Origin: a plasmid
Length of the DNA: 2,257 nt
Assembly (NCBI RefSeq): GCF_056746865.1
Contig: NZ_JBWKMP010000010.1
Strand: one strand, 5' to 3'
The stretch's first letter is position 1. Each line of letters opens with the position of its first letter. Made by a program: the position numbers and the translations under genes. The notes beneath the pieces were generated by a model. It had not been told where the DNA came from. It worked only from the letters and a program-made list of their open reading frames with translations, and searched no databases. This document shows, piece after piece, positions 1 to 2,257 of the stretch.

Positions 1-837
1 AACGTCCTTAAGCACACCACCCGTCGCCACAAAACGGCGCTTATGTACCTGGCGTGTTAACTCTAGGAACCATTCAGGATCGACCAGCATGTCGGCGGGC
101 TTTGTAGAATATTTCAGTGTTTCAACCACCACCCCGCGCAGTTGATCCACCACAGAACAGGGCAACGATTCACCGTCTTTCGGTTTTCTGGACTTCACAA
201 CCCTGATGTCGACGTTCGGGTCATACTCCACCCGCAGACAGTCGCGCCACAACTCCACCCATCGGGCATGTTTCACATAACCATCACCGGACAACATCGA
301 GGGGGAAACCATCAGCAGGGTGTGGAAATGGGGATGAGCACTGCCGTCCTTGCCGCGGGTGACTTCCGTCGTGCGCACCCAACCCAGCACGCCGCGAAAC
401 TCTTTGCGATCTTTCAGGCGCTGGAAGGCCGCATTCATCACGGTCAGGGTGTCGCCAAGCTCCGTAATCGGACAGTTACGGACGGTCAGGGTCAGGAACA
501 GCCAGCGTGCATCAGGATATTCCGCAACGATCTTTGGCAGGGACTGATAGAAACGGGCTTGCCACATCAGGGAACGCCTCCACTGACAGATCGGACAGTG
601 CCGGACCCGACAGAACCGCGCATCACGTAACCGCAGGCGCGTTTCTCCGGTTTCCTCGTTGGTGGACCACCCAAAACGCAGAATGCCGCTACAACCCTCC
701 ACGCGTTCGCCGTAGCGTTCAAATCCGGCAGCCCGCAGATAAATTCCGCCCACATCATCGGAAATACTCCGGTGCTCATCCCACGTTTTGTCCGCAGGGG
801 AGTAATCCGCCAGATTCTGAAGTTCAGGGTTTTCCAT
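1..837 (-). CDS. Rolling-circle replication initiator, Rep_1 (pC194/pUB110-type HUH) family; 5' partial gene, start at 837, 3' end beyond window start
   Basis: Manual translation of the minus strand from ATG (complement of 835-837) is open for 279 codons to position 1: MENPELQNLADYSP...FLTLTVRN...HPHFHTLLMV...VETLKYSTKP.... It carries a Cys cluster CRVRHCPIC (612-586), motif I FLTLTVRN (498-475), HUH motif HPHFHTLL (336-313) and catalytic Tyr motif KYSTK (114-100) with Glu four residues upstream, the same layout as pC194 RepA. An in-frame TAG (850-852) sits just upstream of the ATG. Not in the ORF track because no stop lies inside the window. Confidence 0.9.
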   Translation of the reverse strand, partial: MENPELQNLADYSPADKTWDEHRSISDDVGGIYLRAAGFERYGERVEGCSGILRFGWSTNEETGETRLRLRDARFCRVRHCPICQWRRSLMWQARFYQSLPKIVAEYPDARWLFLTLTVRNCPITELGDTLTVMNAAFQRLKDRKEFRGVLGWVRTTEVTRGKDGSAHPHFHTLLMVSPSMLSGDGYVKHARWVELWRDCLRVEYDPNVDIRVVKSRKPKDGESLPCSVVDQLRGVVVETLKYSTKPADMLVDPEWFLELTRQVHKRRFVATGGVLKDV

Positions 838-872: not shown

Positions 873-889
873 CGTGTTATCATTCCAAT
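873..889. repeat. Direct repeat copy 1 (CGTGTTATCATTCCAAT), iteron-like, upstream of rep
   Basis: 15 of 17 positions identical to the copy at 903-919; exactly 30 bp apart. Confidence 0.7.
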
Positions 890-902
890 ATCACCTGTAT
901 AT

Positions 903-919
903 CGAGTTATCAATCCAAT
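903..919. repeat. Direct repeat copy 2 (CGAGTTATCAATCCAAT), iteron-like, upstream of rep
   Basis: 15 of 17 positions identical to the copy at 873-889; minus-strand reading ATTGGATTGATAACTCG contains TTGATAA. Confidence 0.7.
907..913 (-). promoter_or_regulatory. Candidate rolling-circle nick-site motif TTGATAA (resembles the CTTG|ATA core of pC194/pUB110/phiX174 origins)
   Basis: Minus strand (the rep coding strand) reads GGATTGATAACTCGATATAC, about 70 nt upstream of the rep start and inside a direct repeat. Match to the consensus is partial (A instead of C before TTGATA). Confidence 0.3.
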
Positions 920-974: not shown

Positions 975-1420
975 GACCGCTAAAACCAAAATACACTCAA
1001 AACCATTTCGGAGCAAATTGCCGTTCAGCCCAGTCCTGACAAGGTCTAGAGGCAAATTTGAATCCCAGAGTTATCCCTTAAGTATAAATACAAGGATCGC
1101 GCGCGAGATTTGCTCAAATTTCGAGCTATTTTTTTAGCCCCCCAAAGCCACACATCCCACCCACTTACACCCATCTCATCCACAGACTTTCACCCCGAAT
1201 TTGTGAACAACAAAAACAGCCTCACAGGTGGTTGGCCTCACTCCGTGACACCAACCACCACCACCAGTATCTTCCCCGTGCCATCGTCAATCACAAAATC
1301 GGAACCCACGCCGGAGGCGCGGGACCCCGCGATTTTCTGTTTGACGAGTTCGGGAACGGTGAGCGGGACGCGGAATTTTTTCGCGTGCCGTGAGGCGTTG
1401 GCGGGGTGTCGGGGCGAAGC

Positions 1421-1478
1421 CCTGACCAGGTGGGGAATGTCTGAGCGAGCGTGCGCGGTCCGACATTCCCACATCCTG
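1421..1478. repeat. Left arm of a perfect 58-bp inverted repeat (partner 1826-1883)
   Basis: cctgaccaggtggggaatgtctgagcgagcgtgcgcggtccgacattcccacatcctg is the exact reverse complement of 1826-1883. Imperfect similarity continues about 17 bp outward (to about 1403) and a few bp inward. Confidence 0.95.
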
Positions 1479-1586
1479 CCCCGATTTTTTCGCCAGAACG
1501 CTGGCAGAGCATCGGCAGTTCTGCGCCGTTAAGCCCTCCGCAGGAGCGCACAGTTTCCCGACGAAGGAGAGAAACGTCTAAGTACG

Positions 1587-1616
1587 CATCCGCACTTAAC
1601 TCGCGGATGATTTTTG
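1587..1616 (+). terminator. Intrinsic-terminator-like hairpin inside the inverted-repeat spacer (+ strand)
   Basis: Stem catccgc (1587-1593) pairs with gcggatg (1603-1609), 7 bp; loop of 9 nt; followed by ATTTTTGG (1610-1617). No T-run in the minus-strand orientation. Confidence 0.4.
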
Positions 1617-1825
1617 GCACCGCAGCCACCACAGCTACGCAAAAATTTCGGCGACCGGACAGCAAATCATTCTGCCGTTTTCGTGACGCAGCCGTTCCGC
1701 GCAATCGACAAACTGGCAGTACAGAAAACTCACGAAGTGCGCACTTATACAAACTTCACTTTGTTTCGTTTGTCGTGCGGTCTGCGACGCTCAAAAAAAC
1801 CGAGAAACGGCGGGAACTTTCGGGA

Positions 1826-1883
1826 CAGGATGTGGGAATGTCGGACCGCGCACGCTCGCTCAGACATTCCCCACCTGGTCAGG
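1826..1883. repeat. Right arm of a perfect 58-bp inverted repeat (partner 1421-1478)
   Basis: Exact reverse complement of 1421-1478; imperfect similarity continues outward to about 1900. The arms are separated by a 347-bp spacer (1479-1825). Confidence 0.95.
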
Positions 1884-2052
1884 ACTGCGCCCGACACCCT
1901 CGACACCGTGCCAAATGCACGTTAAAAAATCATTGCGCGCTTCTGGCAAACCTTCAGAGTCTGTTGCCGTGATAGCCAATATGTCAGAAGCGCGCTAAAA
2001 ACGATTCTGACGCGGTGAAGCATCAAATGTAAGGGGATTGCATTCCGGTAAT

Positions 2053-2104: not shown

Positions 2105-2257
2105 TTATTTCTGTTTTGGCTTATCCATTGTGCGATCGCGGCGATACTTTTTAGCCACCGCCCGCCATGAAAACGCCAGACGCGATCCGTCATCCGCACC
2201 CTCTGCCATGCCATCTGCCATAATCAAATCCTCGTTCGTTTCCCGCTCCAGTTGCAA
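2105..2257 (-). CDS. 3' end of an unidentified minus-strand ORF (open to the window edge), or a complete 38-aa basic small ORF starting at ATG 2219-2221
   Basis: Minus frame from 2257 is open for 50 codons (...LQLERETNEDLIMADGMAEGADDGSRLAFSWRAVAKKYRRDRTMDKPKQK*) and ends at TAA (complement of 2105-2107). The other two minus frames hit stops within 11 and 22 codons. An internal ATG (2219-2221) has GAGGA (2229-2233) 7 nt upstream. A strong terminator lies just downstream. Confidence 0.45.
   Translation of the reverse strand: MQLERETNEDLIMADGMAEGADDGSRLAFSWRAVAKKYRRDRTMDKPKQK

Follow-up and report, generated by a model that had tools for sequence, protein, structure and literature searches.

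A perfect inverted repeat in non-coding DNA raises the question of what has made, or keeps, its two arms identical. The window, that is the whole stretch of 2257 bp that was analysed, carries an exact 58-nt reverse complement at two places:

1421-1478: left arm of the 58-nt perfect repeat, its inner end being the predicted nic position
1826-1883: right arm of the 58-nt perfect repeat

The repeat had been described in the earlier note and was confirmed, as was the fading of similarity outward from the arms, seen here over about 17-20 nt. The repeat finder extended it to 1412-1484 and 1820-1892 (73 nt, 96%, with 335 nt between the arms). About 3e-29 such pairs would be expected in 2257 bp, in agreement with the view that a chance origin is as good as impossible. 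Four explanations had been offered: a miniature inverted-repeat transposable element or IS remnant, an invertible segment, a giant stem-loop, and a structure homogenised by gene conversion. None of them names origins of conjugative transfer, which is what the arms resemble. Our analysis indicated that the unit at 1403-1900 is very probably a cluster of borrowed conjugative oriTs on a relaxase-less, one-gene rolling-circle plasmid.

The plasmid and its coding content

The window was one complete circular rolling-circle plasmid in its entirety, a point absent from the earlier note. It was a member of the Col(MP18)/pPM18 rep group, with rep as its sole gene; transfer genes, a relaxase gene and a MobC gene were absent. 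rep spanned the circular junction (837..1, then 2257..2105) and encoded a Rep_1 initiator of the pC194/pUB110 HUH family (Pfam PF01446, E 3e-85).

1-837, minus strand: N-terminal 279 codons of rep, with the HUH motif HPHFHTLL; the gene runs on past the circular junction
2105-2257, minus strand: C-terminal 50 codons of rep and the stop
2077-2056: rep terminator hairpin
876-919, minus strand: probable double-strand origin, with two direct repeats ATTGGAWTGATAAC at 919-906 and 889-876 (minus strand)

Both ATTGGAWTGATAAC repeats contained TTGATAA, a pC194/pUB110-like nick motif that we take to approximate the consensus of that family. The double-strand origin is thus probably placed at 876-919 on the minus strand, and the minus strand would therefore be the displaced one. 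The repeat had been tied to the biology of small rolling-circle plasmids, which was borne out.

The other ORFs were short, overlapping or non-coding. A 78-aa ORF (1238-1474, minus strand) was rejected as a gene, having no third-codon bias and being frameshifted in pPM18, and the judgement that no credible ORF lies inside the unit therefore stood. The same ORF overlapped the left arm and was annotated by RefSeq in relatives. The NCBIfam search of Rep and of this ORF returned no match, and a promoter scan gave one site, within chance expectation. In the Rfam scan of the whole window, the sole match was isrK RNA, whose 21 bits fell short of the gathering score (50); it coincided with the rep terminator and was discarded. 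No homologues of 1893-2060 were found outside the close family.

I-complex oriT mimics in the arms

Judged by its sequence, each repeat arm is a full I-complex (R64/NikAB, MOBP) oriT, and the unit would thus act at the DNA level, as had been supposed, with non-coding oriT-like sites as its arms. That each arm also forms an imperfect palindrome of 18 nt had gone unremarked in the earlier note.

1403-1490, plus strand: left oriT mimic, I-complex (R64/NikAB, MOBP), hairpin type A
1408-1415 and 1419-1426, plus strand: its 8-bp inverted repeat GTCGGGGC/GCCCTGAC, which pairs in 98% of cells across copies
1433-1450 and 1453-1470, plus strand: its 18-nt imperfect inverted repeat, the presumed NikA site
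1471-1478, plus strand: its nick region ACATCCTG, with the nic predicted between 1478 and 1479 by analogy with R64
1814-1901, minus strand: right oriT mimic, type A, in inverse orientation
1871-1854 and 1851-1834, minus strand: its 18-nt inverted repeat
1833-1826, minus strand: its nick region ACATCCTG, with the nic predicted between 1826 and 1825

The predicted nic follows the cut position that Furuya and Komano are said to have found in R64 in 1991. The 18-nt inverted repeat of each arm was 83% complementary and ended 8 nt before that position. I-complex oriTs have a conserved nick region of the form ..CATCCTG, shared with IncP. ACATCCTG was found in both arms and in every copy of types A, B, C and E, while type D copies had GTATCTTG. 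The published features of the R64 oriT are an 8-bp inverted repeat, a 17-bp inverted repeat and a conserved nick region (PMC3817090; PMC4743918), and all were present here, the longer repeat as a 17/18-bp one.

The position of the homologous sites in other plasmids pointed in the same direction. The arm matched 2712 plasmid records, 1891 of them conjugative. In pE275a_123, for example, the left mimic was 94% identical over 86 nt to sequence lying directly upstream of that plasmid's nikA homologue, and the match stopped about 15 bp before that gene. In all conjugative plasmids examined, the site lay about 15 bp upstream of a nikA homologue with a nikB-type relaxase gene next; the loci L006, L013, L021 and L022 showed the same position. 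This is also where the R64 oriT sits, upstream of nikA (PMC3817090).

The two copies were not equally intact. In the right mimic, loss of 1 nt and a C>T change had weakened the 8-bp inverted repeat, and the folding energies were -25.7 kcal/mol for the left copy and -19.5 for the right. At nic+1 the left mimic had C, in contrast to the T of the 22 other copies. The C at the left nic+1 and the damaged right 8-bp repeat, along with the degenerate core and inverted repeat of the left MOBQ-type site described below, were counted against the oriT reading.

Hairpin types and arm swapping among relatives

Across 23 oriT copies, 96% of the hairpin pairs were kept, against 32-46% in slid controls, and compensatory double changes occurred in 8 of the 15 pairs. 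The 8-bp inverted repeat and the nick region were invariant in these copies while the hairpin covaried. At least five hairpin types (A-E) were distinguished among the relatives. Types A, B and C went with three different NikA proteins, whose N-terminal halves differed and whose C-terminal halves were nearly identical. For type D, no annotated relaxase was found near the hairpin in pMO17_54, the best large match.

Two inward-facing inverted oriTs were present in 10 of the 11 related small Rep_1 plasmids, so that the inverted symmetry for which homologous replicons were to be checked was indeed recovered. The arm pairs of these plasmids were matched (A/A, B/B, C/C) or mixed (B/A, D/C, A/B, E-B/E). 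In the closest relative, 94.8% identical to our plasmid, the left arm had a different hairpin. Because relatives' arms carry varied hairpin types, each checked type with a different NikA, the perfect 58-nt identity is a matter of recent homogenisation and not a functional feature. It reflects recent recombination or gene conversion that swapped out a different left-arm hairpin type. Gene conversion, one of the options of the earlier note, hence gives a fair account of the identity seen here, and what it missed is that the arms are oriT-like.

MOBQ-type oriT mimics in the spacer

Going by sequence likeness, the spacer has a further pair of oriT look-alikes, which are of MOBQ (RSF1010-like) type and mutually inverted.

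1551-1590, plus strand: MOBQ-type mimic, R1162/RSF1010-like, of the Col156-plasmid type
1553-1559 and 1569-1575, plus strand: its inverted repeat GTTTCCC/GAGAAAC, aligned with the R1162 inverted repeat
1579-1587, plus strand: its nick core TAAGTACGC
1725-1811, minus strand: second MOBQ-type mimic, of the pDPT3 / 4-kb-plasmid type
1773-1768 and 1754-1749, minus strand: its inverted repeat ACAAAC/GTTTGT
1747-1739, minus strand: its nick core TAAGTGCGC, inside a 12-bp palindrome AAGTGCGCACTT (1735-1746)

The left mimic shared 83-95% identity with a stretch of 60-90 nt lying directly upstream of the Col156 MobA/MobL relaxase gene, and 531 of the 557 records that matched it were typed as mobilizable. 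The right mimic was 78-87% identical to the mobC-mobQ intergenic region, and its inverted repeat covaried, reading ACAATC/GATTGT in L009, L012, L015 and L017. In the cognate plasmids, the homologous sequence was situated 13 bp upstream of mobQ (L017), 3 bp upstream of mobA/mobL (L018 and L019), or adjoining mobC (L015). The MOBQ core consensus is quoted as NWACCNNTAAGTGCGCCCTYNN (PMC3832669), and the nick cores were scored against TAAGTGCGCCCT. The right core TAAGTGCGCACT (minus strand, 1747-1736) agreed with the consensus at 11 of 12 positions and the left core TAAGTACGCATC at 8 of 12; a plain search for AAGTGCGC was uninformative. Compared with its own cognates, the left mimic was slightly degenerate: its nick core, elsewhere conserved, had a G>A change and its inverted repeat a single mismatch, and because of these two changes it may be decaying.

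Alternative explanations

One reading of the repeat is that its arms pair, in the single-stranded intermediate of replication, into a giant stem-loop with the role of single-strand origin or packaging signal. The plasmid does produce ssDNA through its Rep_1 initiator, and in the single-stranded form the identical arms paired into a 73-bp stem, the unit folding at -176 kcal/mol (z = -15.7). The spacer by itself was barely structured compared with shuffles (z of -1.7 and -2.1). Among relatives, the hairpins differed between the arms in 6 of 10 relatives, being only about 76-78% alike in three, and in one the left arm was just a remnant. Since most relatives have differing arm hairpins, the long stem is not a conserved feature, and with it usually absent, the stem-loop reading lost its footing. 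Moreover, the arm sequence is common to the nikA-upstream oriT of conjugative plasmids that replicate by the theta mode, and a better conserved and more structured block lies outside the unit:

1219-1411, minus strand: conserved non-coding block, candidate single-strand origin, just outside the left arm, with hairpins at 1227-1259 and 1318-1331

The structure of this block reached z values down to -7.5, and part of it was similar to a site located downstream of IncFII repA, at a distance of about 630 bp, which we presume to be a primase 'G-site'. Nothing usable was found in the literature on pKYM and on the IncFII G-site. As a candidate, this block fits a single-strand origin better than the arms do, and we regard the stem-loop as a very unlikely explanation of the repeat. 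A segment whose spacer is flipped by a recombinase acting in trans or by RecA appeared just as improbable. Identity over 58-73 nt would suffice for occasional homologous recombination, and NikB is described as able to recombine oriT copies; the relaxase recombination reported, however, is that of tandem copies. A recombinase ORF was absent from the plasmid, all 10 aligned relatives had the spacer in one orientation with respect to rep, the strand assignments of the same accessions agreed across searches, and the spacer held no orientation-dependent feature such as a promoter or a split gene.

The terminal inverted repeats, the length of about 500 bp and the lack of coding sequence would suit a MITE or an IS remnant with long terminal repeats. 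However, in similarity searches for further copies the whole unit was confined to this plasmid family; elsewhere single arms turned up, either upstream of nikA, in conjugative plasmids, or by themselves on a RepL plasmid. The spacer halves were separately homologous to MOBQ oriT regions, arm types had been exchanged without regard to the opposite arm or to the spacer, and transposase-related sequence was absent; a mobile element is therefore exceedingly improbable. We give as little credence to an assembly artefact. The exact window sequence was indeed absent from both collections searched, PLSDB and RefSeq E. coli, with a best full-length match of 94.8%. However, the two-arm layout occurred in at least 10 independent records, including the independently sequenced S. 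Enteritidis plasmid pB (NC_005002.1), whose arms were identical over 73 nt, and p7_020022, whose arms were identical over about 72 nt. The artefact against which the earlier note had cautioned was thereby dispelled.

Proposed transfer by helper plasmids

The cluster of borrowed oriTs was preferred on the basis of homology, the position beside nikA/nikB or mobA/mobQ in the cognates, hairpin covariation, the co-variation of NikA with the hairpin, and conservation of the layout. With borrowed oriTs in both arms and spacer, the 2257-bp plasmid, which has no transfer genes, is therefore probably movable between bacteria by neighbouring plasmids. Nicking and mobilisation are predicted to proceed as follows, and the exact nic positions are likewise predicted. 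The helper would be a co-resident conjugative plasmid (IncI1/Igamma/K/B/O/Z) with a matching NikA, which for type A would be of the WP_001291058 type. NikA would bind the nic-proximal hairpin arm, and NikB would make its cut after ACATCCTG and lead one strand out by way of the helper's type IV secretion system ('relaxase in trans'). Given the inverted arrangement of the copies, the left oriT (nic between 1478 and 1479) would send the plus strand and the right oriT (nic between 1826 and 1825) the minus strand, and because both nic sites face inward, the spacer would enter the recipient first in either case. The MOBQ look-alikes, one per strand, could admit the relaxases of co-resident small mobilizable plasmids if these copies work.

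The inverse orientation would be the stable one, because NikB recombines tandem (direct) oriTs and would delete the DNA between them. The recombination of tandem oriTs by NikB is attributed to Furuya & Komano (2003) in two later papers (PMC5714925, PMC4902927). Perfect identity of the arms, in this model, may be a cost rather than a benefit, because the 73-bp stem could compete with the local hairpins that the relaxase needs to terminate transfer.

More speculatively, the unit at 1403-1900 may be a roughly mirror-symmetric, four-way transfer hub. It would comprise four oriTs, a pair of MOBP type and two MOBQ ones that differ from each other; each strand would carry two of them, and all nics would be directed toward a shared leading region, so that either strand could be launched by the relaxases of large conjugative or small mobilizable plasmids. 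Recombination in the conserved hairpin loop and flanks would re-assort helper specificity, the A/A pair found here and the chimeric arm of NZ_CP039589.1 being snapshots of this process. We consider this extended version possible, yet rather doubtful.

Comparison with known systems

The two-oriT arrangement has already been published for pBuzz (Moran & Hall, 2019, Plasmid 101:10-19). As described in other reports, pBuzz is a rolling-circle plasmid of 1982 bp that has two oriTs in inverse orientation and no relaxase, and is mobilised efficiently by a B/O plasmid (PMC9282650; PMC11389934; PMC7448864). Like pBuzz as portrayed there, our plasmid is a Rep_1 plasmid of about 2 kb with rep as its sole gene and two inverse I-complex-like oriTs. 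It joins the pBuzz kind, and the cluster of four oriTs is a modest addition. Unlike the pBuzz-like plasmids of 1.98-2.1 kb, it belongs to the Col(MP18)/pPM18 rep group, with about 80% DNA identity. The 1983-bp pB, about 80% identical over 76% of the window, likewise has a type-A oriT in both arms; its spacer is 255 nt long as against 335 nt here, and it lacks the Col156-type MOBQ mimic.

Regarding the models of each oriT family, the arms are similar to the R64 / I-complex oriT in the 8-bp inverted repeat, the 17-bp inverted repeat, the nick region 8 nt from that repeat and the homology upstream of nikA. In contrast to R64, the oriT is here present twice, without nikA or nikB, and the type A hairpin (GGGGAATGTC...) is about 78% identical to the Igamma/K1-type copy. 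The right MOBQ-type site resembles the RSF1010/R1162 oriT in having an inverted repeat followed by the nick core TAAGTGCGC, and its homologues adjoin a MOBQ relaxase gene. It differs in its core, as does the left one (TAAGTGCGCACT, 11/12; TAAGTACGCATC, 8/12), and relaxase and MobC genes are absent here.

The two oriTs of R6K are reportedly inverted and both functional, according to work ascribed to Avila et al. in 1996. R6K shares with our plasmid the presence of two copies of one oriT family on a single replicon, and its oriTs have been called 'typically duplicated' (bioRxiv 10.1101/2024.01.30.577996). However, it is large, self-transmissible and has its own relaxase, whereas the oriT mimics here are parasitic and lie on a 2.3-kb plasmid. 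A further related class, known from S. aureus and E. coli, is that of the oriT-mimic ('pOriT') plasmids, which have no relaxase and carry the oriT of a helper (O'Brien, 2015; Ares-Arroyo, 2023). About 88% of oriT-bearing E. coli plasmids have one oriT, a few have up to 5, and multiple oriTs usually go with multiple relaxases (Ares-Arroyo, 2023, PMC10123127). The plasmid described here has four candidate oriTs within 0.5 kb and no relaxase.

With as many as four oriT mimics, addressed to two families of relaxase, the plasmid would be a dense case of helper dependence. Mimics of this kind would explain the spread of very small 'non-mobilizable' enterobacterial plasmids by the carriage of nothing but the cis-acting transfer sites of others. 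Furthermore, cointegration of such small plasmids can render larger resistance plasmids mobilizable (PMC7448864, PMC8765060). Among the relatives, NikA-site hairpins have been exchanged naturally and can be matched to NikA variants, a series that should be useful for studies of oriT specificity. Typing of the relatives was inconsistent, since MOB-suite labelled them 'mobilizable' in some records and 'non-mobilizable' in others.

The arms as probable origins of transfer

The exact 58-nt reverse complementarity described in the earlier note (1421-1478 vs 1826-1883) was borne out, and with mismatches the repeat grew to 73 nt (1412-1484/1820-1892, 96%). Chance would supply about 3e-29 such pairs; that either arm is itself an imperfect 18-nt palindrome had been missed. 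When both arms were aligned with the equivalent arms from four relatives, three parts appeared: a variable hairpin, flanked by one conserved box on its left (GGTGTCGGGGCGNAGCCCTGACCAGG) and another on its right (ACATCCTG TCCCG). Of the 2712 plasmid records matched by the 88-nt arm, 1891 were conjugative. In all five conjugative plasmids inspected (pE275a_123, p9134dAT, pYZLc23-1_NDM-13_96k, pO26_2313_1 and CP061760), the match stopped about 15 bp upstream of a 110-aa NikA/'MobA' gene, after which came a 2.7-kb gene for a NikB-type relaxase, and the typing was MOBP and MPF_I. The oriT of R64 lies directly upstream of nikA and contains 17-bp and 8-bp inverted repeats, the R64-type 17-bp repeat being the NikA site, which differs according to NikA (PMC3817090; PMC4743918). 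The position of these matches and the anatomy of the arms are those published for the R64 oriT:

1408-1426, left arm: 8-bp inverted repeat GTCGGGGC/GCCCTGAC
1433-1450/1453-1470, left arm: 17/18-nt inverted repeat
1471-1478, left arm: nick region
1478/1479, + strand: predicted nic of the left copy, by analogy with R64 and RP4
1826/1825, - strand: predicted nic of the right copy, by the same analogy

The cut position used for this analogy is reportedly that of Furuya and Komano in 1991. Both predicted nic sites point inward, and therefore the spacer between the arms would leave first from either origin. On its inner side, the perfect 58-nt repeat stopped precisely at the predicted nic. Position 1479 (predicted left nic+1) was C in the left copy vs T in 22 of 22 other aligned oriT copies; a plain point mutation or the trace of a relaxase-mediated join could account for it.

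We compared 23 oriT copies, taken from the window, from 11 small plasmids and from four plasmids that were conjugative or large. At least four types of hairpin (A-D) could be told apart, with a fifth, E, in NZ_CP039589.1, while the 8-bp inverted repeat and the nick region were essentially invariant. Hairpin pairing was kept in 96% of alignment cells vs 32-46% with a slid partner, and 8 of 15 hairpin pairs showed changes on both sides. Three different NikA proteins adjoined types A, B and C, respectively (overall identity 59-68%), divergent in the N-terminal half and nearly identical from residue 66 on. Such pairing, two-sided changes and NikA differing with type are evidence, at the level of sequence, pointing to the hairpin as a selected specificity element. 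Large-plasmid matches to types B and D reached 96-98% identity each; for type B, the oriT was confirmed to precede a nikA homologue, and no annotated relaxase was found near the type D match.

Arrangement and identity of the arms

Two inward-facing inverted oriTs were present in 10 of 11 related small plasmids, in the following left/right hairpin types:

Matched pairs: window A/A; pB A/A; p7_020022 C/C; pPM18 B/B
Mixed pairs: p88COLEC-4 B/A; three plasmids D/C; one A/B; one chimeric E-B/E

The left arm was reduced to a remnant in one related plasmid. In NZ_CP063460.1 (2097 bp; 113-140 and 250-390), the 8-bp inverted repeat part is what is left of the left oriT, and short CCCACA-type repeats abound in the stretch that replaces the missing portion.

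The earlier note had offered a miniature transposable element or IS remnant, an invertible segment, a giant stem-loop acting as single-strand origin or packaging signal, and homogenisation by gene conversion. Only the last was retained, and for the perfect identity alone. No inverted spacer was found among the relatives compared, which argues against an invertible segment. The nearest full-length relative, p88COLEC-4 (94.8% identical), differed from the window in patches, at 801-950 (rep 5' end and putative double-strand origin), 1401-1500 (left hairpin), 1701-1750 and 2001-2050. Because its left hairpin is type B and the chimeric arm of NZ_CP039589.1 switches type at the conserved loop, the perfect 58 nt are best read as recent recombination or conversion making the arms alike. 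Perfect identity is then best regarded as no requirement for function, the conserved trait being the arrangement.

The left hairpin of NZ_CP039589.1, a Salmonella plasmid (1360-1432), combined an outer half of type E (GTGTTTGT) with a nic-proximal inner half of type B (TATACGATTAC), with the crossover within the conserved loop GCGTGCGTGCGCGG and pairing between the halves lost; its spacer was 99-100% identical to that of the window. NZ_CP151402.1, a 1902-bp S. sonnei plasmid of the unrelated RepL type (Col(MG828)), carried a lone type-A I-complex oriT at 512-599, and the arm also matched 1.5-kb plasmids (~76%), so the module by itself moves from one small-plasmid backbone to another.

Putative MOBQ-type sites in the spacer

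The right half of the spacer (1650-1819) was conserved in all relatives, and 661 of 681 records matching it were typed mobilizable. Within it, 1721-1811 matched the region between mobC and mobQ in MOBQ plasmids of 4 kb and 8 kb (78-87%). The common core, TCACGAAGTGCGCACTTATACAA, reads GTTTGT-A-TAAGTGCGCACT on the - strand: the inverted repeat is ACAAAC/GTTTGT, which covaries with ACAATC/GATTGT, and the putative nick core after it agrees at 11 of 12 positions with the MOBQ consensus TAAGTGCGCCCT (quoted in PMC3832669). The left half (1485-1649) was found in some relatives only (531 of 557 matching records typed mobilizable), and 1529-1614 matched, at 83-95%, the 60-90 nt that immediately precede the MobA/MobL relaxase gene in Col156 plasmids. 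It aligned with the R1162 oriT (CAGTTTC.C...GAGAAAC...TAAGTGCGC), with a G>A in the nick core and one inverted-repeat mismatch in the window. The nick-core strand was antisense to the relaxase gene in both cognate plasmid families; the window has one mimic on each strand. With the two arms, the 500-bp unit (1403-1900) thus holds four putative oriT-like sites, each strand carrying two. In the window (1558-1570) and Col156, the loop of this MOBQ hairpin was CCCGACGAAGGAGAG; NZ_AP027210.1 (1850-1870) has the exact reverse complement, CTCTCCTTCGTCGAG, with the loop flipped and the stem retained.

Proposed mobilisation

We propose that the plasmid could be mobilised by a relaxase in trans. A co-resident I-complex plasmid with a type-A NikA would provide NikA, NikB and the mating apparatus, and nicking at either arm would send either strand. 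The inverse orientation would avoid the NikB-mediated deletion which has been reported, as cited by others, for tandem oriTs (Furuya & Komano 2003, via PMC5714925; PMC4902927). Mixed arm pairs in relatives would widen the choice of helpers, and the MOBQ mimics may recruit small mobilizable plasmids as further ones. Mobilisation of pBuzz, a small rolling-circle plasmid with two inversely oriented oriTs (Moran & Hall 2019), was demonstrated experimentally according to citing papers (PMC11389934; PMC9282650), and pBuzz-like plasmids with L/M-type oriTs are mentioned in later work. Plasmids with several oriTs are a known minority: among E. coli plasmids that bear an oriT, about 12% carry two or more, with a maximum of five (PMC10123127). 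The window is a further member of the pBuzz kind, differing in its rep group and carrying an A/A pair; the pair of inverted MOBQ-type mimics in the spacer would extend this layout modestly.

Replicon and candidate origins

Several 2257-bp records from E. coli and Salmonella, typed Col(MP18), matched the window (2257 bp) end to end as two pieces. The rep ORF runs across the junction (837..1, then 2257..2105; 329 aa), agreeing with the 990-nt rep of relatives, and encodes a Rep_1 (PF01446) HUH initiator (E 3e-85). The end-to-end records and the junction-spanning rep indicate that the window is a complete circular rolling-circle plasmid, with rep as its single real gene. Upstream of rep lie two direct repeats:

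919-906, - strand: ATTGGAWTGATAAC, with TTGATAA motif, pC194/pUB110-like
889-876, - strand: second copy of the same

TTGATAA is presumably the pC194/pUB110-like nick motif; if the repeats are so read, the - strand would be the nicked, displaced strand. The patch most divergent from the nearest relative (801-950, 43 of 129 differences) spans the rep start and these putative double-strand-origin repeats (876-919), a pattern compatible with exchange of the Rep N-terminus together with its origin specificity.

The single-strand origin probably lies outside the unit. Just outside the left arm, the non-coding block 1219-1411 was 92-95% conserved where rep was only ~80% identical, and was the most structured non-oriT region (z down to -7.5; hairpins 1227-1259 and 1318-1331). 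Within it, 1225-1334 could be aligned with a site in pSLT-type virulence plasmids that lies ~630 bp downstream of IncFII repA, the changes in the stems being partly compensatory; the R1/R100 primase-dependent 'G-site' presumably lies at this location. The active strand would equal the - strand of the window, i.e., the displaced strand. The block is a candidate 'G-site'-type origin, a lead and not a demonstration.

An ORF on the - strand (1238-1474), overlying this block, is a 75-78 aa 'hypothetical protein' in RefSeq in several relatives (WP_065898629, WP_000263637, WP_109475618), with its start codon inside the oriT nick region. Its substitutions lacked third-codon bias and pPM18 carried frameshifting indels, so it was rejected as very probably a spurious call. 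A 14-nt inverted repeat (1935-1948/1982-1995, 93%, 33-nt loop) lies after the right oriT and before the rep terminator, in a region with strong ssDNA structure (z about -5) for which no homologues were found beyond the closest relatives. A weak Rfam isrK match (2054-2161, - strand; 21 bits vs a gathering score of 50, E 0.099) was rejected, since it corresponds to the rho-independent rep terminator (hairpin 2077-2056, then a T run).
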